64,000 nucleotides of DNA from Vicinamibacteria bacterium (GTDB lineage Bacteria > Acidobacteriota > Vicinamibacteria > Fen-336 > JAGNNV01). The notes under the pieces were generated by a model that was not told the DNA's origin, did not search any database, and saw only the letters and a program-made list of their open reading frames with translations. The stretch is taken from contig JAIBCN010000181.1 of NCBI GenBank assembly GCA_019694155.1, positions 6,523 through 70,522 of the forward strand, written 5' to 3'. The position numbers were made by a program, and so were the translations under genes. Within the stretch, counting starts at the first letter, position 1. Every line of letters begins with the position of its first letter. Below are positions 13,258 through 50,873 of this stretch, piece after piece.

Positions 13258-16218
13258 ATGACGTTTTCCCGCGCATTGCGCATGCTTTTGTCCCTTTCCC
13301 TGGTGGCGCTCTCTTCGCCCCTCTGGGCCCAGCAGACGGGCGCCATCAGCGGCAAGGTCACCGACACGAGCGGCGGCGTCCTTCCCGGCGTCACCGTATC
13401 GGCCCGCTCCAGCGTCCTCCCCACCCCCCGCGTCACCACCACCGACGGGTCCGGTGAGTTCCGCATGCCGGCCCTGCCCCCGGGCGAGTACAGCCTGGAG
13501 TTCACGCTCTCCGGAATGCAGACGGCGACCCGAAAGGCCATGGTTCAACTGGCTCTCGACACCCTCGTGAACGTGAAGCTCGGCCTGCAGAACGTCACCG
13601 AGAACGTCGAAGTGACAGCGAGCGTCTCTTTGGTGGATCAGAATACCGCGAGCGTCACGAGCGGCCTCTCCACCGCGCAGCTCGCCGGATTGCCCCTGGG
13701 CACGGAATACCGTGACCTCATCAAGGTCATCCCGGGCATTCAGTACTCTCAGGACACCGTGCGTGGTCCGAGCGCCGGCGGGAGCGGGCAGGACAACACC
13801 TACAACTTCGACGGCGTCAACGTCACCCTGCCCCTCTTCGGAACGCTGTCCGCGGATCCGGCGGCGCACGATATCGCCCAGGTCACCGTGATCAAGGGCG
13901 GCGCCCGCGCCGTGGATTTCGATCGCTCGGGCGGCTTCATGGTGGACTCGCTCAGCAAGTCCGGTTCTTCGGCCTGGGCCGGGCAGGTGAGCTTCCGTCT
14001 GCAGAACCACAAGATGTCCGCGGACCTCAAGAACGCCATCTCCCGCTTCGAGCAGGACAAGACGTGGACCACGGTGAACCTCGGAGGTCCCCTCCTCAAG
14101 GACCGCCTGTTCTTCTACGGCTCCTACTATCGTCCCGACAACTCCCGCGAGAATCGCGCCAACCTTTATGGTCCGCTGCCCGCCTACAGCCTCAAGCGGA
14201 ATGAAGGCTTCGGCAAGCTGACCTACACGCCGAACTCGTCGGTTCTCCTGAACGCGAGCTACCGCCAGTCGAAGAAGGTCGAGGAAAGCGATCTCTTCGC
14301 TTCGAACGCCGCGGCCACGAGCGGCTCCGGCAGCGAATCGCGACAAAAGATCTTCACCGCGGACGGCTCCTGGATCATCAATCCCAAGAGCTACGCCTCG
14401 TTCAAGTTCACCCGCTTCGAGAACCCCGGCCAGGGCCGCCCCGACATCGAGTCGGACGCGGTTCCGTCTACTACGATCGGTTCGAGGATCGATGTCTCCA
14501 ACCTCGACAAGCTCGGGCGTTTCACCGTCCCCACCCTGGTGGCGAACGGAGTCGGCAACGCCTTTGCCCAGACCCTGATCGATCGCTACGGCTATACCGC
14601 GAACGGGGTGAAGACGGGCGGCGGCATCGTCGGCTACGGGCTCTCGTTCGACCGGGATGACTTTTACCGGACCGCGGGACAAGTCGCCTACAACCTGACC
14701 TTCGGCGGCTCCGTGCGCCACGACCTGCATTTGGGGGCTCAGGCCTCCAAGGACGAAGAGGATTTCGGACGCAAGTCCAACGGCCTCGGCGCCATCACGG
14801 CGCCCGCCGGCCGTACATCCTTCAACGGGACGCCGATCTTCTATACCGTGAACTTCCTCCAGCAGGGCCAGGGCCTTCTGCCCATCATTCACTCCGAGTA
14901 TCACTCCCTGAACCTCGAGGTCAACGACACCATCCGCTACAAGGACTGGGCATTCAACCTTGGCGTGGTGGCGAGCCGGGACACCCTCTACGGACAGGGC
15001 CTCAAGAATGACGACTCCGTGCTCTCCGGTTTCACCCTGGCCCTCGGGAACAAGTACAAGCAGTACACCATCCCCTTCAGCAAGATGATCCAGCCGCGCC
15101 TCGGCGCCACCTGGAGCTACAACGGCAAGGACACCATCTATGCGAGCTTCGCGAAGTACAACCCCGCGGTGAGTTCGCTGTCCCGCGCCGCGGCCTGGGA
15201 CCGCAACTACGCCGGCGCCTCCGTGAACGTCCACTACGACCAGAACGGCGTGGCCTTCGGCGTGCAGCCTGTCGCTTCGTCTTCGGGCAAGCTCTTTGTT
15301 GAGGACATGACTCCCCGCACCATCAAGGAGTACCTGGTCGGCACGGCACGCGAGCTCAACAGGAACCTAACGGGTCGGGTCTATGGCCGCTACCGCGAAG
15401 GCTCCCACTTCTGGGAGGACACGAACAACAACGCCCGACAGGCGTTTAACCCTCCCGCTGGAGTCCCTCGGGATCTCTATATTCCGAACCTCGACGATCA
15501 GCGTCGTCAGATCGGAAACGGCACCTTGAACGGCTCGACCTACGTTATTGCCGAACTGGATGGCGCCTACACCAAGTACTGGGAGGGCACGATCGAACTG
15601 GAGTGGCACAGCGCGAAGACGCACGCGAACCTCACCTACACGCGCAGCCACTACTATGGCAACTTCGATCAGGACAACTCGACCACGGGGAACGACGCGA
15701 ACATCTTCATCGGCTCTTCGAATATCGCGGACGACGCGGGACGTCAGCTCTGGGACTTCAAGGACGGGACCCTGCGTGGCGACCGGCCCCATGTGTTCAA
15801 GCTGAACGCTTTCCGGACCCTTCCCTGGAAGGCGACCGCGGGCTTCTTCGCCCTCGCGCAGTCCGGGCAGCCGTGGGAGACCTGGAGCTACGAACCGTAC
15901 CGGGCGCTCACCACGTCTACGAGCGACACCAACCGCTACGCGGAGAAGGCGGGTTCAAGGCGCAGCGACAGCCACTACCAGCTCGACCTCAACTACACCC
16001 AGGACATTCCGCTCAAGAACAAGCTGAAACTCCAGCTGGTGGCCAATCTCTTCAACGTGTTCGACAAGCAGACGGGGTACAACATCCAGCCGAGCATCCA
16101 CGTTCCGGTGACGACGTCCACCCTGGCCGATGGCCGGCAGGTGCAGACCGGTTACGGACTGCCGCGGACCTTCTTCGATCCGCGGCGTCTCGAACTCGAA
16201 GCCCGCATCCGCTTCTAG
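13258..16218 (+). CDS. TonB-dependent receptor-like outer-membrane protein with N-terminal carboxypeptidase-regulatory-like (CarbopepD_reg) domain
   Basis: Signal peptide. Motif GKVTDTSGGVLPGVTVSA...TTDGSGEFRMPALPPGEYSL. 986 aa. C-terminal aromatic residue (…ARIRF). AGGAGG RBS 7 nt upstream of the ATG. Confidence 0.85.
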   Translation: MTFSRALRMLLSLSLVALSSPLWAQQTGAISGKVTDTSGGVLPGVTVSARSSVLPTPRVTTTDGSGEFRMPALPPGEYSLEFTLSGMQTATRKAMVQLALDTLVNVKLGLQNVTENVEVTASVSLVDQNTASVTSGLSTAQLAGLPLGTEYRDLIKVIPGIQYSQDTVRGPSAGGSGQDNTYNFDGVNVTLPLFGTLSADPAAHDIAQVTVIKGGARAVDFDRSGGFMVDSLSKSGSSAWAGQVSFRLQNHKMSADLKNAISRFEQDKTWTTVNLGGPLLKDRLFFYGSYYRPDNSRENRANLYGPLPAYSLKRNEGFGKLTYTPNSSVLLNASYRQSKKVEESDLFASNAAATSGSGSESRQKIFTADGSWIINPKSYASFKFTRFENPGQGRPDIESDAVPSTTIGSRIDVSNLDKLGRFTVPTLVANGVGNAFAQTLIDRYGYTANGVKTGGGIVGYGLSFDRDDFYRTAGQVAYNLTFGGSVRHDLHLGAQASKDEEDFGRKSNGLGAITAPAGRTSFNGTPIFYTVNFLQQGQGLLPIIHSEYHSLNLEVNDTIRYKDWAFNLGVVASRDTLYGQGLKNDDSVLSGFTLALGNKYKQYTIPFSKMIQPRLGATWSYNGKDTIYASFAKYNPAVSSLSRAAAWDRNYAGASVNVHYDQNGVAFGVQPVASSSGKLFVEDMTPRTIKEYLVGTARELNRNLTGRVYGRYREGSHFWEDTNNNARQAFNPPAGVPRDLYIPNLDDQRRQIGNGTLNGSTYVIAELDGAYTKYWEGTIELEWHSAKTHANLTYTRSHYYGNFDQDNSTTGNDANIFIGSSNIADDAGRQLWDFKDGTLRGDRPHVFKLNAFRTLPWKATAGFFALAQSGQPWETWSYEPYRALTTSTSDTNRYAEKAGSRRSDSHYQLDLNYTQDIPLKNKLKLQLVANLFNVFDKQTGYNIQPSIHVPVTTSTLADGRQVQTGYGLPRTFFDPRRLELEARIRF

Positions 16219-43723: not shown

Positions 43724-44161
43724 ATGACGATCTCACCCACGGATGCGAAGGCGGCCGAACTCACGCGGTACCTCGACGCCCTCGATCGGGCCGGGCATCT
43801 CGGCTCCCGGGCGCTCGATCAGGCGCTCGGCAATCCGCCGCCCGGGTTGAGTGCCCACGAGATCAGCGTCGACAAACGGTTCACGCGGGTGAGCACCGGC
43901 CATCGCACCCTTCTCGGCTACAGCCCCGGAGACCTCGTGGGGAAGCCGGTTTCGAACTACGTGGTGCTGAAGGAGACGGCCGAGCGGGCGATGAGCCGCA
44001 AGCTCTCGCCCGGCGCCGTTCTTCTTCCCTACACGCGCACCTTCCGCAAAGCGGATGGCGGCGAAATCTCACTCCTCCTCATCGATCGCCATCTGAAAGG
44101 CGACGATGGCCACGTCACCGGCATACGCACCGCTTTCGCCGAGGCCCCGAAACCCTCCTGA
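43724..44161 (+). CDS. Stand-alone PAS-domain protein
   Basis: LGYSPGDLVGKPVSNYV matches the PAS consensus (ilGYspeELiGks). 145 aa, no output domain. Confidence 0.5.
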   Translation: MTISPTDAKAAELTRYLDALDRAGHLGSRALDQALGNPPPGLSAHEISVDKRFTRVSTGHRTLLGYSPGDLVGKPVSNYVVLKETAERAMSRKLSPGAVLLPYTRTFRKADGGEISLLLIDRHLKGDDGHVTGIRTAFAEAPKPS

Positions 44162-44170
44162 GGCCTCTCC

Positions 44171-45577
44171 CTAGCCGAGGGTCAGAGCGGACAGATCCAC
44201 GAGCCCGGTCACGGTCGGCAGGAAACCGCGCAGCCGCCACGCGTGGGCGACGCAGGCGCGGCCGTACATGAGGGGCACGAGGGGAACATCGCGCCCGAGA
44301 AGCATGCCGATTTCGCCGAGCGTCTCCTCGCGCCGCTCCTTGCGATAGGAGGCGATGAGGTCGTCCATCTCGCGGCTCCGGTAGCGCGAGAAGTTGAACG
44401 CGAAGGACGAGCCCTCGGCGCCCGAGGGCACGGCATCCGAACCGACGACCGCGGAGAGGTAGTCGCTTGGATCCGGACTGTCGGGAATGTTGCCCATGAG
44501 GGCGAGGTCGTAGTCGCCCGAGTTGACCTTCGTGATCAGTTCGCCCGACGCGACCTCCGAGGCCTCGATGATTGCGCCGAGCCTACGGAAGCGGTCGCGC
44601 AGGTGTCGGGCCACCGCGGCGGGCGCGGGGAGATAGGGGCGGGGGGCCGGGGAATAGATGATCGACATCGGCTTTTCGTAGCCGCCGGCTTCCTGCCACT
44701 CGGCGCGCGCGCGTTCGCCGTCGGGGGTGAGCCGGTCGTTGGTCTTGCCTAGGGCGGGAGGGAGAAGTCCGGTGGCTCGAAAGGCCAGGGGGTTTTCGCC
44801 GAAGGCGATCTCGGCGACGATGGTGCGGTCGACCGCCTTGGCCAGGGCGGCGCGAAGCCGCGCGTCCTTCAGCCGCTCGTTGTTGATGTAGAGCATGCAG
44901 GTCGAATTGACCGGCTTCATCACCACCGCGGTGTTCTTGAGCACGTTGACGTCCCGCCACGAAAGGCGCGGAGCGAGATCGACCTCGCCCTTCTCGAGGG
45001 CATTCAGGAGCGCGACCGGCCTTCCCGTCTGCGCATCGACGGGGTAGTGACGAACTTCTATCGACTCGATCCTGGAGGGCGTCCGCGCATGCGGATTGCG
45101 AACCAGCCGGACCACATCCTTGTCGGAGGGCCCGATCATGTACGCGCCGGTTCCAGCGAGGCCGCCCGCCGTCTCCCGATAGAGCATCCCGCACATGGTG
45201 AGGAAGAGATCGAAGCGTGTGTTGGGCGCGAACAGGGTGAGATGCACGCGCCCGTCCCGGTACGACGCCGATGCCCGACTGGTGAAGACGGGGTCGTGGG
45301 CCAGCGCCCCCACGACATCCTCGGCGGTCGCAGGCGTGCCATCGCTGAAGCGGGCGTCCCGCCGCACCGTGGTGGAGAACTTCAATCCGCCGCTTCCCGC
45401 CTCCTCGGTGAGTTTCTCCTCGAAGAGGGCGGGAGTGGCGTCACCCGCCGCCGAGGCCAGAAACGGAGTTTCGAAGATCTGGCGGGCGAGCAGAATCGTG
45501 GTCGCCTCGGCCATAGTGCGGGGATCGATCGATCCCACCGGATCGACCACTCCTATGCGGAGCACCGAGGACGCCAT
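44171..45577 (-). CDS. Solute-binding protein family 5 (peptide/nickel-type ABC substrate-binding fold); no signal peptide apparent, no adjacent permeases
   Basis: SBP_bac_5-like architecture. 468 aa. The N-terminus MASSVLRIGVVDPVGSIDP lacks a hydrophobic signal. Confidence 0.7.
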   Translation of the reverse strand: MASSVLRIGVVDPVGSIDPRTMAEATTILLARQIFETPFLASAAGDATPALFEEKLTEEAGSGGLKFSTTVRRDARFSDGTPATAEDVVGALAHDPVFTSRASASYRDGRVHLTLFAPNTRFDLFLTMCGMLYRETAGGLAGTGAYMIGPSDKDVVRLVRNPHARTPSRIESIEVRHYPVDAQTGRPVALLNALEKGEVDLAPRLSWRDVNVLKNTAVVMKPVNSTCMLYINNERLKDARLRAALAKAVDRTIVAEIAFGENPLAFRATGLLPPALGKTNDRLTPDGERARAEWQEAGGYEKPMSIIYSPAPRPYLPAPAAVARHLRDRFRRLGAIIEASEVASGELITKVNSGDYDLALMGNIPDSPDPSDYLSAVVGSDAVPSGAEGSSFAFNFSRYRSREMDDLIASYRKERREETLGEIGMLLGRDVPLVPLMYGRACVAHAWRLRGFLPTVTGLVDLSALTLG

Positions 45578-45630
45578 GGCCCATTGTAGCGACTCACCGC
45601 TGCACGCGGCGCACGCGCCGCCGTCAGGGC

Positions 45631-45975
45631 TCAGTCGTGGCGGCGTTCGTACCCGCGGCCGCGACGCTCGTAGTAGCCGCGCTCGTAGCCGGCTCGGAAA
45701 CCTTCCGCGTACTCGATCTTCGATCCGAAGTAGGGGCGGTAGCCGTCGGTGCCGCGGCGGTATCGGCCGTCGTCCCAGAAGCTGCGGCGATACGTCTTCC
45801 CCCGGTCGCGGTATCCGGCCCAGCGTCCGTCGCTCAGGCCGTGCCGGAAGCCTTCTTCATAGGCCGAGTACGCGGGCCGGTAGGGGACGGGCCGTCCCTC
45901 GTACGCCCGCGTGTAAGAGCACGCGGGCGACACGAGGGCCAGGCCGAGAACGACAGCGGCGATTCTCCGGTTCAT
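45631..45975 (-). CDS. Small secreted Arg/Tyr/Gly/Asp-rich low-complexity protein (paralog 1)
   Basis: Signal peptide MNRRIAAVVLGLALVSPAC. The mature part is about 60% R/Y/G/D/E with motifs EGFRHG and AEGFRAGYERGYYERRGRGY. Confidence 0.6.
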   Translation of the reverse strand: MNRRIAAVVLGLALVSPACSYTRAYEGRPVPYRPAYSAYEEGFRHGLSDGRWAGYRDRGKTYRRSFWDDGRYRRGTDGYRPYFGSKIEYAEGFRAGYERGYYERRGRGYERRHD

Positions 45976-45996
45976 GGCGTTCGTCCTTCCGCGGGT

Positions 45997-46413
45997 TCAG
46001 CGGTCGTAGCGGCGTCCGTCGCGCCAGTCACGGTCGTTGTATCGCCCGCCCCGGACGTTCGCGTAGCCCCGCCGATATCCCTCGGCAAAGCCCCGGCGGT
46101 AGGCCGAGACGTACTCGTAGCGGGGGCCGTATTCGCGACGGTAGCCGGCATCACCGCTCCGATAACGGCCCTCGTCCCGGTAGTTGAAACGGTCGTCGTG
46201 ACGATCGTCCTTCTCGCCCTCGCGCAGGCCGTCGCGGTATCCGTTGTCGAACGCGATGCGCTCCACGTTGTACCGGCCGCGGTAGCCGTCACGATCGTAG
46301 TAGGGGGACCGATCCGTGGCGACGACCACTCCCACGCGTACACCCGCCTGCGCGGGCAGGGTGCTCAAGAGTGCGACGGATGCGGCGATGGCGGTGAGGG
46401 CGATTCGATTCAT
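45997..46413 (-). CDS. Small secreted Arg/Tyr/Gly/Asp-rich low-complexity protein (paralog 2)
   Basis: Signal peptide with AQA-G cleavage site. Motifs DGLREG and AEGYRRGYANVRGGRY. Clear paralogy with the 45631..45975 gene. Confidence 0.6.
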   Translation of the reverse strand: MNRIALTAIAASVALLSTLPAQAGVRVGVVVATDRSPYYDRDGYRGRYNVERIAFDNGYRDGLREGEKDDRHDDRFNYRDEGRYRSGDAGYRREYGPRYEYVSAYRRGFAEGYRRGYANVRGGRYNDRDWRDGRRYDR

Positions 46414-46634
46414 GGTGTGTCTCCTTCGCCAGCCAGGAGGAGCAACCCCCGTGCCAGGTAATGCGGGTCACATTCCGGGCCGCCGCTGTACTCGGCCGGC
46501 GACAGCAGTGTCGTCGACCGAGCGCGATCCCGGGTGCTGCATCCAAGGCTCTGAACACCGCCATGTCGGGGCCAGAAGGGCGACGAAGTGGGCGGTTGAC
46601 GCTGTCCGTGCGGTGGCCGTACCGTGCGGCCGTC

Positions 46635-47546
46635 ATGAGCTTTCACTACCTGCACCTCGACGTGTTCACACCGAAGCCACTTTCCGGCAATCAGCTCGCG
46701 GTCTTCCTCGACCCGCCACGGTGGCCGGACGAGACCATGCAGGCGATTGCCCGGGAGATTGCGTTTTCGGAGACGACGTTCGTTTACCCGCCATCGCACG
46801 ACGGGTCCCTGGCGCAGGTCCGGATCTTCACGCCCGGCGGCGAACTGCCCATGGCCGGCCATCCCACGATTGGAACCACGTTCGCTCTCGCGCTGCGCGA
46901 GCGGATCCCGCATGGCACCAAGCACGTTGTGCTCGATCTCGGCGTGGGTCCGACCCCGGTGGACCTCGAATGGGACGGCGCGGCCCGCAGACTCCGCTTC
47001 GCCTGGATGACCCAACCCCGGCCGGCCTTCGGGCCGCGGCTCGAGAATCGTGAGGAGGCGGCGCGCGCGCTCGGCCTGGAGCCCGCGGACCTGGCAGCGG
47101 ATCTCCCCGTCGAGATCGTCTCGTGCGGCGTGCCCTTCGCCTACCTGCCCCTCGTTTCCCGCCATGCCGTAGACCGGGCCCGCGTGGACCGCGCCCGGTG
47201 GCAGGGTGTATGCGCCGCGAATTCCGTCGAGGAGCACAAGATCTTCGTCTTCTCGATCGAGGAGCGGAACACGACGCCCATTCGCCTTTACAGCCGCATG
47301 TTCGCGCCCCTGATCGGCATCGCCGAGGATCCCGGCACCGGCGGCGCCTCCGGGCCGCTCGGCTCCTACCTCGTGCGCCACGGCGTTGCGTCCGGGCCGG
47401 TTTCCGATTTCCTGAGCCATCAGGGTGTCGCCATGCATCGACCCTGCGAAATCTCCATCCGGATCGCGAGCGAAGGGACGGACATCACCCGCGTTCAGAT
47501 CGGCGGCACCGCCACACTCGCGGGTGAGGCCACGCTGCGCGTCTGA
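46635..47546 (+). CDS. PhzF-family isomerase (phenazine biosynthesis-like / DAP-epimerase fold)
   Basis: LHLDVFT...GNQLAVF and E(S)ETTF motifs. 303 aa. The ATG is at 46635, inside the longer track ORF. Confidence 0.9.
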   Translation: MSFHYLHLDVFTPKPLSGNQLAVFLDPPRWPDETMQAIAREIAFSETTFVYPPSHDGSLAQVRIFTPGGELPMAGHPTIGTTFALALRERIPHGTKHVVLDLGVGPTPVDLEWDGAARRLRFAWMTQPRPAFGPRLENREEAARALGLEPADLAADLPVEIVSCGVPFAYLPLVSRHAVDRARVDRARWQGVCAANSVEEHKIFVFSIEERNTTPIRLYSRMFAPLIGIAEDPGTGGASGPLGSYLVRHGVASGPVSDFLSHQGVAMHRPCEISIRIASEGTDITRVQIGGTATLAGEATLRV

Positions 47547-47589: not shown

Positions 47590-48618
47590 ATGATCATGAC
47601 CAGTCCCGTGATCTCGACGGAGCCGCTTGGATTCCCCTGGGCGACCGCGGACCCCTTCCTCTTCTGCGTGCATCACAACGACGCCTACCCGGAAGGCAAC
47701 GACAAGCTCGGTCCGCGCGCTTCACTCACCGGTCGGGATATCGGTCAGGATTTCAGCGGCCGGGATGGGTGGAGCATGTATCACGGCGACGTGGTGCCGG
47801 GCTTCCCGCAGCACCCCCATCGCGGCTTCGAGACCGTGACCCTGGTCCGGAGCGGCTACATCGACCATTCCGATTCACTCGGCGCCACCGCGCGCTTCGG
47901 CCGCGGCGACGCGCAGTGGCTGACCGCGGGCGCAGGCATCGTTCACTGCGAGATGTTTCCGCTGCTCGAAGAGACAAAGCCGAACCCGGTCGAACTGTTT
48001 CAGATCTGGCTCAACCTTCCCGGCGAAGACAAGCTGGTGGCGCCCCACTTCGCCATGCTCTGGGGCGAGGACATCCCGCAGCGTGTGTTCACGGACGACG
48101 CCGGCCGCGTCACGCGGGTGACGGTGGTGGCGGGTCAACTCGACGGAAGCCGCGCGCCGTCCCCTCCTCCGAGGTCCTGGGCCTCGAGGTCCGACACCGA
48201 TGTCGCGATCTGGAGCATCCGCCTGTCAGCCGGAGCGAAGTGGATGCTTCCCTGCGCGGCCGGTTCGGCAACCGTTCGCAATCTCTACTTCTTCGCCGGC
48301 CCCTCGGTGAAGATCGGCGAGCATCAGCAAAAGTCACACGCAGGAATCGAAGTGAAGGCCTCGATCGACCTCGAGATCCAGGCCGGCGACGGAGAGTGCG
48401 AGATCCTGCTTCTGCAGGGCCGCCCTATCGGCGAGCCTGTGGCGCAATATGGACCGTTCGTCATGAACACGCGGGCGGAGATCGAGCAGGCCATCGCCGA
48501 CTACCGCCGGACTCAGTTCGGCGGATGGCCGTGGCCCGTCAACGACCCGGTCCATCCCCGGGGGGAGGGCCGCTTCGCGAAGCACGCGGATGGAGAAGTG
48601 GAACGCCGGGATCGCTGA
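47590..48618 (+). CDS. Pirin-family cupin protein
   Basis: HPHRGFETVT (HxHxxxE cupin metal site). Pirin C-terminal domain. 342 aa. Confidence 0.9.
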   Translation: MIMTSPVISTEPLGFPWATADPFLFCVHHNDAYPEGNDKLGPRASLTGRDIGQDFSGRDGWSMYHGDVVPGFPQHPHRGFETVTLVRSGYIDHSDSLGATARFGRGDAQWLTAGAGIVHCEMFPLLEETKPNPVELFQIWLNLPGEDKLVAPHFAMLWGEDIPQRVFTDDAGRVTRVTVVAGQLDGSRAPSPPPRSWASRSDTDVAIWSIRLSAGAKWMLPCAAGSATVRNLYFFAGPSVKIGEHQQKSHAGIEVKASIDLEIQAGDGECEILLLQGRPIGEPVAQYGPFVMNTRAEIEQAIADYRRTQFGGWPWPVNDPVHPRGEGRFAKHADGEVERRDR

Positions 48619-48621
48619 GCT

Positions 48622-49905
48622 TCAACCCGCCCGCTGCAGATACAACTGAAGGGTCTGGCCCGCCAGGTCCTTCGCGGAAACCGAGGCCACCGCCACCCCC
48701 GAATGCCGGAGGCGGGCCGCCATGCGCCGGTTGCCGGCGAGGATGCCAAGCGCCTCCGTCTGGGCGAAGGCGTCAATCGGGGTGCGACACTCGGCCGAAA
48801 CCAGGCGGTGCACGTCGGGATCCTCCAGGTTGATCAGGATCGGCCGGTGGCGTCTTCGGAGCATCCCGAGAGCGTTGCGCACCGCCTCCGCGGCCGCGAT
48901 GTCGACCACGGAGGTCATCAACAGAGCCACCGTCCGCCGCGAGTCGAGCGAGTCGACCGCTTCCGCGGCGAGTTCGTAGGCGGGCTCCTTCAGCGTCGCT
49001 TCCAGATCGAACAGCGCGGCGTAGGCCGCCGCCGCCCCTCGCGATCCCGGCCGCACGCGGACCGTCCGCAGAATCCGGTCAGCAAACGCGATCACGGTGA
49101 CGTGGTCCCCGCGGCCGGCCGCCACGCGAACCAGAGCGAGGGTGGCGGCGAGGGCCCAATCGAGTTTCCCCCGATCGCCATCGACGCTCGCCATCGAGCG
49201 CCCGCAGTCGAGGAGAACCGCCAGGCGCCCTCCTCGTTCCCATGCGTCTTCACGACTGATCAGGTGCCCGCGCCGCGCGGACGCCTTCCAGTGGATCTTC
49301 GTCCTCGGGTCGCCGGATCGATACTCCCGAAGGGCGTAAGGCTCGTAGCCCATTCCCCGGTCCTTGAGCGGATTCTGGCCGAGCTGCTTTCGATGGGCGA
49401 GGTTCAGAAGATGACCGACGCTTCCATCCCATCTCACCTGCGGAAGGACCCGGACTTCCTCGTCGGCCAGGAACTCCCTTTGGGTCAGGGCGAGGCCCAG
49501 CGGTCCGGGAATGCGCGCGACGAGCGGCCCCAGGGCGTGCGTCCCGCGCGTCTTCGGGGTCACCATGTAGGTCCAGGCGCCGGTTCCATCCTGGACCCGC
49601 ACGGTGGCGCGACGGGGCGCCTCCGCGACGCCCGGATGCAGGGTCTCGCGCAGTTCCACGGTCAGGTCGCGATCCCCGCGCAGGTTCACCTCGCATGAGG
49701 TCTTCGCGCCCTGAACCAGAAATCCCGACCGTGATCTCGTAGCACTCAGGACCGTTCGTCGGGCAAGAAGCAGATCCGCGCCGAAGAGGGCCAGGGCCAG
49801 AACATCGGCGCCGAGAATCGCCGCGAAGGCGCGCTCCTCGAGCACCGCGACGGAGCTCGCGAACACGAGCAGCAGTCCCGTGAGCAGCAGGCGCCTTGTG
49901 GGCAT
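48622..49905 (-). CDS. DUF58 (vWA-like) protein, MoxR partner
   Basis: Two N-terminal TMs. DUF58 core (REYRSGDPRTKIHWKASARRGHLISRE). vWA-like region LLDCGRSM. Confidence 0.85.
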   Translation of the reverse strand: MPTRRLLLTGLLLVFASSVAVLEERAFAAILGADVLALALFGADLLLARRTVLSATRSRSGFLVQGAKTSCEVNLRGDRDLTVELRETLHPGVAEAPRRATVRVQDGTGAWTYMVTPKTRGTHALGPLVARIPGPLGLALTQREFLADEEVRVLPQVRWDGSVGHLLNLAHRKQLGQNPLKDRGMGYEPYALREYRSGDPRTKIHWKASARRGHLISREDAWERGGRLAVLLDCGRSMASVDGDRGKLDWALAATLALVRVAAGRGDHVTVIAFADRILRTVRVRPGSRGAAAAYAALFDLEATLKEPAYELAAEAVDSLDSRRTVALLMTSVVDIAAAEAVRNALGMLRRRHRPILINLEDPDVHRLVSAECRTPIDAFAQTEALGILAGNRRMAARLRHSGVAVASVSAKDLAGQTLQLYLQRAG

Positions 49906-49913
49906 TTGCGGTG

Positions 49914-50873
49914 CTAGTGGGGGACGTCCACGGTCTGAATCACCCGGGCCACCGCGGCGCCCGGAGTGAGACCCTCGATCTCCGCCTCCGCGGTCAGTCG
50001 GATGCGGTGGGCCCAGACCGGAACCGCGAAGCGCTTGAGGTCATCGGGAATGAGGAAGTCGCGGTCGGCGAGAAGCGCGGAAGCGCGGCCAACTTCCAGG
50101 AGCGACAGCGCCGCTCGCGGGGAAGGCCCGATCTCGACCTGGGGCGCCTTTCTCACCGCGGCGGCCAGGCGCTGCAGATAGGCGATCGATTCCGCGGAGG
50201 CGTGCACCAGGCGCGAAGCCTCCCGCAGCGCCCTGGCCTCCTCGAGACTCGAAACCACGGTGGGGACGGCCCTTGAATCGAGGGCGCGTCCTTCAGCCGC
50301 GGCCTGCAGCATGGCGATCTCATCGCCGTCGGGCGGAAGACCCACGATCACCCGGAGCGCGAAACGATCCAGCTGCGCTTCGGGAAGGGAATACGTGCCC
50401 TCATGCTCGATGGGATTCTGGGTGGCGGCCACGAAGAACGCGGGATCCAGCACATGACTCACGCCGTCGATCGTCACCTGTTCTTCCTGCATGGCCTCGA
50501 GCAGGGCCGACTGGGTCTTCGGCGGCGTCCGGTTGATCTCATCGGCCAGAAGGAAGTGGGTGAAAACCGGCCCCCGCACCAGGTGGAAAGTGCGCGTAGA
50601 CGGGTCGAAGACGTTGGCTCCCAGCAGGTCCGCGGGCATGAGGTCGGGAGTGAGCTGCACTCGCGAGAACTGCATGCCGAGGAGCTTTGCGAGCGACCGC
50701 GCGAGCGTGGTCTTGCCCACGCCCGGCATGCCCTCGATGAGGATGTGGCCCCCGGACAGGAACCCGGCGACCATCGATTCGCAGACGTCGTGCTGGCCGA
50801 CCACGCTCTGCTCGAGGGCGTTCACGATCTCTCTCGCTCTTGCCTTCGCCCAGCCACTATCCCTTGCCGTCAT
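49914..50873 (-). CDS. MoxR-family AAA+ ATPase
   Basis: Walker A GMPGVGKT. Walker B LLADEINR. ATFNP-like sensor motif (ATQNP). 319 aa. Confidence 0.95.
   Translation of the reverse strand: MTARDSGWAKARAREIVNALEQSVVGQHDVCESMVAGFLSGGHILIEGMPGVGKTTLARSLAKLLGMQFSRVQLTPDLMPADLLGANVFDPSTRTFHLVRGPVFTHFLLADEINRTPPKTQSALLEAMQEEQVTIDGVSHVLDPAFFVAATQNPIEHEGTYSLPEAQLDRFALRVIVGLPPDGDEIAMLQAAAEGRALDSRAVPTVVSSLEEARALREASRLVHASAESIAYLQRLAAAVRKAPQVEIGPSPRAALSLLEVGRASALLADRDFLIPDDLKRFAVPVWAHRIRLTAEAEIEGLTPGAAVARVIQTVDVPH

Follow-up and report, generated by a model that had tools for sequence, protein, structure and literature searches.

Two small genes, here called A and B, lie next to each other on the minus strand of the window, as we call the whole analyzed stretch of 64,000 nucleotides, which originates from a Vicinamibacteria MAG (Acidobacteriota). 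Their positions and those of the associated features are given in Table 1. A previous sequence-only reading had described two adjacent minus-strand genes of 114 and 138 aa at this locus; both ORFs were found where it had placed them, and their coding frame was supported by the analyses described below.

Table 1. Positions of the A–B genes and of associated features in the window
Feature	Position	Strand	Remarks
Upstream block	46485..46519	minus	GACGACA-N4-TGTCGCC-N4-GAGTACAG; imperfect palindrome, conserved
Predicted sigma-54 (RpoN) -24/-12 promoter	46441..46456	minus	TGGCACGGGGGTTGCT; ends 27 nt 5' of the ATG of A
Shine-Dalgarno site of A	46421..46426	minus	AAGGAG; 7 nt 5' of the ATG of A
Gene A	45997..46413	minus	138 aa; NCBI MBX7186618.1, K1Y01_15870, 'hypothetical'
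Module of A	46063..46257	minus	residues ~53-117; G58-G62-G66, loop YRSGDAGYRREYG, G108-G112-G116
Shine-Dalgarno site of B	45984..45990	minus	GGAAGGA; within the 21-nt A-B spacer
Gene B	45631..45975	minus	114 aa; NCBI MBX7186617.1, K1Y01_15865, 'hypothetical'
Module of B	45673..45867	minus	residues ~37-101; G42-G46-G50 and G92-G96-G100
Putative -10 box of the SBP_bac_5 gene	45583..45588	minus	TACAAT; 5 nt 5' of the SBP_bac_5 ATG
SBP_bac_5 gene	44171..45577	minus	directly downstream of B, same strand

With a G+C content of 67%, the window contains long spurious ORFs on every strand, and the presence of such overlapping ORFs could speak for the alternative that A and B are spurious themselves and that the true gene uses the other strand or another frame. 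However, GC3 was 0.81 in A and 0.84 in B, compared to 0.82–0.88 in the neighboring genes and 0.68–0.69 in the overlapping alternative frames, and dN/dS was well below 1 in pairwise comparisons with five orthologous loci (0.12–0.46 for A and 0.21–0.40 for B, with dS near saturation). Based on GC3 and dN/dS, a coding frame on the opposite strand, which had been named as a possibility to be checked, was rejected. Homologs in the annotated frame, of which 159 were found for A and 26 for B in a search covering 5.8 billion proteins, and the conservation of the Shine-Dalgarno sites likewise argue against spurious ORFs, leaving this alternative with a negligible probability. The block AAGGAGACACACCATG around the Shine-Dalgarno site of A is almost invariant among 21 loci, and the location of the Shine-Dalgarno site of B inside the short spacer between the two genes suggests that A and B are on one transcript.

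R, Y, G, D and E dominate the mature chains, as had been recognized before, and add up to 71% in A (R 23.5, Y 13.9, G 14.8, D 13.0 and E 6.1%) and 67% in B, versus a background of 30% determined from 45 long ORFs in the window. V, L, I and M together account for 8.7% of mature A and 3.1% of mature B, and the mature chains have net charges of +6 and +8, respectively. The previously quoted motifs RDGYRGRY, AEGYRRGY, GRYNDRD and AEGFRAGYERGY are present. In BLASTP, A and B share 30% identity (E 2e-8), and profile-profile comparison with hhalign gave a probability of 99.2% (E 3.6e-19); by these sequence comparisons, A and B are true paralogs. From the earlier proposal of a tandem duplication followed by repeat drift, the paralogy is thus retained, whereas the drift is not, because each protein contains one module of fixed length.

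Both proteins begin with the signal peptide that had been ascribed to them. The N-terminus of A consists of MNR, a hydrophobic stretch of 16 residues and PAQA|G, giving a signal peptide of residues 1–23, and A23 of the AQA motif is nearly invariant among 69 homologs of A. Judged by its sequence, AQA|G is a classical signal-peptidase-I cleavage site of a Sec signal peptide. B starts with MNRR and a hydrophobic stretch that ends in VSPAC, in which Cys19 is the sole Cys of B and invariant in 27 sequences. Compared to the lipobox consensus [LVI][ASTVI][GAS]C with a conserved Cys, these 27 sequences have a lipobox-like site with A/G/S at -1, mostly Pro at -2 and S/A/G/T/V/P at -3, and B itself departs from the canonical lipobox with S at -3 and P at -2. 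B is probably a membrane-anchored lipoprotein. Export of B by the Tat pathway is unlikely, as the RR pair is not conserved. A signal peptide was present at the start of every family member inspected.

Anatomy and predicted fold of the module

The modules of A and B have a length of ~65 aa and consist of a GxxxGxxxG helix, a conserved loop and a second GxxxGxxxG helix, with the sequences G58-Y-R-D-G62-L-R-E-G66 and G108-F-A-E-G112-Y-R-R-G116 in A. The distance between the two GxxxGxxxG motifs is exactly 50 residues in almost every A-type and B-type protein and also in both modules of ~220-aa two-module relatives, in which the modules are connected by a Gly/Tyr-rich linker. Relative to the module of A, that of B has compensating length changes of +4 and -4 residues, and the difference in length between the two proteins stems from the N-terminal segment that follows the signal peptide and from the C-terminal low-complexity tail. 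Outside of the module, A contains a beta-strand-like segment, GVRVGVVVATDR, and an R/D/Y-rich tail. Among the 69 homologs of A, G58, G66, R85, G90, Y91, G96, G108 and G112 are invariant, and D56, D61, G62, D69, D88, R98, Y101, Y105, R106, F109, Y113 and R114 are nearly invariant. In the helix repeats, G at positions i, i+4 and i+8 is followed by an aromatic residue or Leu, then by Arg and then by Asp or Glu, a pattern that would gather glycines and aromatic side chains on a single helix face and distribute the charges over the others. The distant family members P0221 and P0274 have kept the module in an Asn/Ala/Ser-rich background without Arg/Tyr richness, indicating that the Arg/Tyr bias does not define the family.

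In an AlphaFold2 model of A built with a 69-sequence alignment, residues ~48–120 adopt a helical hairpin with a pLDDT of ~90, composed of a helix from residue 40 to 71, a structured excursion and a helix from residue 98 to 124, and the signal peptide, residues 24–40 and the tail have a pLDDT below 50. For a two-module relative, AlphaFold2 predicted two hairpins (pLDDT 87–96) and a disordered linker, with a pTM of 0.42 that leaves the mutual arrangement of the modules undefined and supports neither packing of the modules nor an A–B heterodimer. We infer that contacts between the glycine/aromatic faces pack the hairpin and that the conserved Arg, Asp and Tyr residues act as staples, which would explain how a domain nearly free of aliphatic residues can fold. 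A large share of the unusual composition would then belong to the fold and the remainder to the disordered tails. The earlier view that the chains are disordered and lack a globular core is contradicted by the modelled hairpin and by the invariant glycines, and we consider this anatomy of the pair, with one module that folds as a hairpin in each protein, to be very likely. A sequence-profile search against the PDB yielded 0 matches at E ≤ 10, and Foldseek did not detect a match for the modelled fold in the PDB.

Probable promoter, upstream site and gene neighborhood

The -24/-12 element upstream of A is an exact match to the sigma-54 consensus TGGCAC-N5-TTGCW, with GG at -24 and GC at -12, and represents the sole match in the 64-kb window when up to one mismatch is allowed. 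Transcription of A is predicted to start near 46430, resulting in a 5' UTR of ~17 nt. Among syntenic metagenome loci, L001, L002, L006, L007 and L008 each contain a single copy of the element; it ends 28 nt 5' of the annotated ATG in four of these five loci and precedes a likely upstream TTG start in L007. All 18 A-type genome loci likewise contain the motif with 0–1 mismatch, compared to an expectation of 0.017 per upstream region, and in these loci its distance from the start codon is 26–28 nt (or about 50 nt). We regard it as highly probable that this element is a sigma-54 promoter of A. Two distant members are preceded by sigma-54-like motifs with 1 and 2 mismatches, and before most multi-module relatives the motif was not found, so this mode of regulation may be restricted to the A-type subfamily. 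Two A-type genes (L015 and L028), both preceded by an exact sigma-54 motif, are located on the Vicinamibacteria contig JAGNNV010000004.1, where B and the SBP gene follow the L015 copy alone.

When 21 upstream regions were aligned, three conserved islands stood out from otherwise diverged DNA, namely the imperfect palindrome GGACG-N-GTCGCC-N4-GAGTACA, the -24/-12 element and the Shine-Dalgarno block of A. Between the palindrome and the -24 element lie 30 nt in the window and its group (46457..46486 in the window), compared to ~41 nt in L006-L008, L011, L012, L014-L019 and L022, a difference of one helical turn. The gene 5' of the palindrome is PhzF in the window and in L007, and Pirin, Band_7 or Peptidase_M55 elsewhere. 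Since the block is conserved next to variable upstream neighbors, it can be assigned to A, and it is a candidate for being bound by an enhancer-binding protein. The search for such a protein in the window detected no encoded GAFTGA or Walker motif. Exclusively in L001, a gene with Response_reg and Sigma54_activat domains is located 3.4 kb away, between DUF58 and Pirin, and this gene is missing in the window. Positions 47590..50873 of the window contain Pirin on the plus strand, followed by DUF58/VWA and a MoxR-type AAA_3 ATPase on the minus strand, as in L001. The sole other match to the core of the upstream site, TGTCGCC-N3-CGAGTACA, was found with 2 mismatches at 13475..13492 on the plus strand; as no sigma-54 motif is near, it probably occurs by chance. 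The PhzF ORF (46461..47546, plus strand) appears over-extended, and its likely start at MSFHYLHLDVF near 46638 would imply ~225 nt of shared divergent regulatory DNA that holds the promoter of A and the upstream site.

The SBP_bac_5 gene had been described as directly downstream of B and co-directional, which is correct, whereas a link between this gene and the A–B pair is not supported, given its own putative -10 box and the retention of A without it. The sequence CCTAGAAT (TAGAAT/TACAAT) ends 5–7 nt before the SBP ATG in all 12 readable loci, and we found neither a signal peptide on the SBP_bac_5 protein nor a Shine-Dalgarno site in front of its gene. Judging from these sequences, the gene appears to have its own promoter and to give rise to a leaderless transcript, with the box marking the boundary of the A–B unit. 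Between B and the SBP gene, a consensus scan found no intrinsic terminator and the hairpin did not outperform shuffled sequences (z-score -0.64), so that read-through into the SBP gene is possible. The SBP_bac_5 product itself looks like a cytoplasmic 'solute-binding' protein, and no transporter genes are located alongside.

In most of the 21 syntenic loci, all of which come from close relatives, the gene order is A-(B)-SBP_bac_5-(MGS)-Peptidase_S9. A has been kept where the SBP gene was lost (L007, L011 and L012), and B is absent from six of the 21 loci (L010-L014 and L016), so that a tandem arrangement is not found throughout. This pattern of retention and loss identifies A as the constant component, B as an optional paralog and the SBP gene as a neighbor, not a partner. 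In L013 (5366-5599, with an A that is 86% identical), B is missing, and a decayed B signal peptide with a remnant of the lipobox (..LIVVSPACSTTWAT..) is still present. In the window, the MGS and SBP genes are separated by 570 nt that contain a 145-aa PAS_9 ORF (43724..44161, plus strand); because this gap spans only ~110 nt in L001, the ORF is probably a lineage-specific insertion.

Comparison with known families

Scans of A and B against Pfam and NCBIfam gave no match, the module being without a model in either collection, and both genes are annotated as 'hypothetical' at NCBI, in agreement with the earlier statement that no named family could be recognized. A literature search returned nothing on this module family, and a mention of PF09811 (PMC8546570) is unrelated. 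The nearest family is Yae1_N (PF09811, deca-GX3), which matched A with 9.5 bits and an E-value of 1.1, compared to a gathering threshold of 27.5, and did not match B at E ≤ 1. Of the A-type members, 58 of 69 matched PF09811 below threshold, as did 29 of 32 members with two modules; the best match among the relatives had an E-value of 5e-5, and all were below the gathering score. A glycine at every fourth helix residue is common to Yae1/Lto1 and the A/B module, but deca-GX3 proteins have ~10 consecutive GX3 repeats in ~40 residues, whereas A has two separate runs of three glycines at the 50-residue spacing; some family members have four glycines per run instead of three. Moreover, A and B are exported bacterial proteins without Fe-S context, in contrast to Yae1 and Lto1, which are cytosolic proteins of eukaryotes. 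In the Yae1–Lto1 pair, the GX3 motif mediates complex formation (PMC4523923). The sequence similarity to Yae1_N suggests a likeness in the mode of helix packing and not membership in the family.

FliH carries helical glycine repeats of the type AxxxG(xxxG)n (PMC2674601), and such repeats are rich in charged residues in FliH/YscL, as they are in the A/B module. Three homologs (P0079, P0092 and P0115) are named 'FliH' by JGI. In contrast to FliH/YscL, the members of the present family have a signal peptide and are not encoded near flagellar or type III secretion genes; instead, the neighbors are Pirin, PhzF, SBP_bac_5 and peptidases. The FliH Pfam domain (PF02108) was not detected at E ≤ 10 in any of 101 family members. 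Given the lack of a FliH domain and the presence of signal peptides, we reject the JGI label as a mis-annotation driven by the repeats.

ZraP, Spy and CpxP are small, exported and all-helical proteins, as predicted for A and B, and transcription of zraP in E. coli starts from a sigma-54 promoter that is activated by ZraR. Membership of A and B in this group, judged by LTxxQ motifs, a Pfam match and the characteristic fold, was rejected, and no fold match to Spy, CpxP or ZraP or to any other specific structure was obtained. Mussel foot protein 3 (Mfp-3, PF04202) resembles A and B in being an Arg/Tyr/Gly-rich, basic and secreted protein, and one of 69 family members matched PF04202 with an E-value of 2.5e-5. 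Kinship with Mfp-3 was rejected because this sole match is caused by composition in a tail, A and B are unmatched and the core is a conserved helical domain.

Possible role in the envelope and spread of the family

We assign a probability of roughly 0.55 to the overall reading that A and B form a sigma-54-driven unit encoding exported GX3-hairpin proteins with an inducible binding or adaptor role in the envelope. Under this reading, A and B would be expressed as a two-gene unit from a sigma-54-dependent, activator-controlled promoter, and both products would leave the cytoplasm, A as a soluble periplasmic protein and B probably as a membrane-anchored lipoprotein. The glycine/aromatic faces would let the helices of the hairpin pack closely, and conserved Arg, Asp and Tyr residues of the helices and of the loop between them could take over the stabilizing role of an aliphatic core. 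The pair would be made only when an enhancer-binding protein is activated in response to a specific signal, and would then take on a binding or adaptor function in the envelope. This could occur by protein-protein contacts via the GX3 helices, by analogy to Yae1–Lto1 or FliH, or by binding of anionic envelope polymers via the basic Arg/Tyr surface and the tails. In this way, we infer a function of A and B as inducible envelope proteins, and we put forward a role as envelope effectors as a tentative assignment. The closest functional analogy may be the sigma-54-controlled periplasmic ZraP of E. coli, to which there is no similarity in sequence or fold.

Several observations could also be reconciled with other roles. 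A and B might be disordered, charge-patterned Arg/Tyr/Gly/Asp proteins that act as matrix or adhesive components or bind minerals, nucleic acids or polysaccharides by cation-pi interactions, like mussel foot proteins. The RYGDE content of 67–71%, the net charges of +6 and +8, the low model confidence of the tails and the N-terminal segment, the match of one relative to Mfp-3 (E 2.5e-5) and the fusion of some relatives to Fn3 domains are consistent with such a function, but a helical core of fixed length that is modelled with confidence and contains invariant glycines is not. Furthermore, distant members keep the module and lose the Arg/Tyr bias, B is probably lipid-anchored and the Mfp-3 match is restricted to one of 69 members, and we regard disordered adhesives as quite unlikely. 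Arguments from the gene neighborhood point to A and B as accessories of the adjacent peptide-handling cluster, composed of SBP_bac_5, two S9 peptidases, an M55 peptidase and glutamate dehydrogenase, for example in presenting or capturing periplasmic peptides. The order A-(B)-SBP_bac_5-(MGS)-Peptidase_S9 in most of the 21 syntenic Vicinamibacteria loci would fit this idea, yet synteny among closely related genomes is weak evidence, and the SBP protein lacks a signal peptide and its gene has its own putative -10 box and an apparently leaderless start. As A persists without the SBP gene in three loci (L007, L011, L012) and distant members have unrelated neighbors, we judge a function in this cluster to be improbable.

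The mode of regulation would additionally be compatible with A being the feedback ligand of a periplasmic sensor whose response regulator activates the sigma-54 promoter of A, following the logic of ZraP-ZraSR or CpxP-CpxA. A is small, periplasmic, all-helical and basic, it has a predicted sigma-54 promoter with a candidate activator site, and the gene with Response_reg and Sigma54_activat domains in L001 is only 3.4 kb away. However, no sensor or regulator gene is adjacent to A in the window or in most of the loci, and neither the sequence nor the fold of A is similar to CpxP, Spy or ZraP, so that we consider a feedback ligand unlikely.

Compared to the sequence-only reading, the observation was confirmed and the interpretation was partly right: A and B belong to a well-defined domain family with a regulatory signature and are not a disordered oddity. 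What appeared as low complexity can now be curated as a defined domain family of ~2000 sequence clusters, and the conserved sigma-54 promoter with its candidate activator site offers a regulatory handle on this family. The promoter and the upstream site of A are new, as is the separate -10 box of the SBP gene, and two misleading readings, the JGI 'FliH' label and the assumed link to the neighboring binding-protein gene, were corrected. Helix packing by GxxxG repeats is known from membrane helices and from the cytosolic FliH and Yae1–Lto1 proteins, and the models suggest that it extends to soluble exported proteins. As a more far-reaching and rather doubtful generalization, the module might constitute an extracytoplasmic fold class that is new and largely limited to Acidobacteriota, a soluble helical hairpin based on glycine/aromatic packing and an Arg-Asp-Tyr network and not on an aliphatic core. 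In Vicinamibacteria, it would serve as a sigma-54-induced envelope effector with a lipoprotein paralog as an optional component, for example as a chaperone under stress or as an adaptor that binds polyanions or a partner.

Acidobacteriota are among the most abundant soil bacteria, and most of their envelope proteins are without an assigned function. When 1.84 billion cluster representatives (clusters at 50% identity) were searched exhaustively with an HMM, the module family comprised 1971 clusters at E ≤ 1e-3 and 769 clusters at E ≤ 1e-10, with one to four modules per protein. A 12-sequence alignment retrieved 74 loci from species-representative genomes, nearly all of them from Acidobacteriota (Vicinamibacteria, Vicinamibacterales, Terriglobia/Terriglobales and UBA6911), and a few odd taxon labels among these loci are probably due to binning errors. 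One homolog of the module family was found in Pyrinomonadaceae. The neighbors of distant members were only housekeeping genes (URO-D, ComM-like and Nth) and unknown small proteins. In one relative, the module is fused to two Fn3 domains. In many relatives of 310–330 aa (L047-L081, for example L052:3058-3990 and L065:4899-5855), a single N-terminal module is joined to a C-terminal TrbI-like segment and a glycine-zipper segment, and a precomputed match to PF03743 exists for one of them (P0324). In 17 loci, an unknown protein of ~200 aa is encoded immediately 5' of the 310–330-aa relative.
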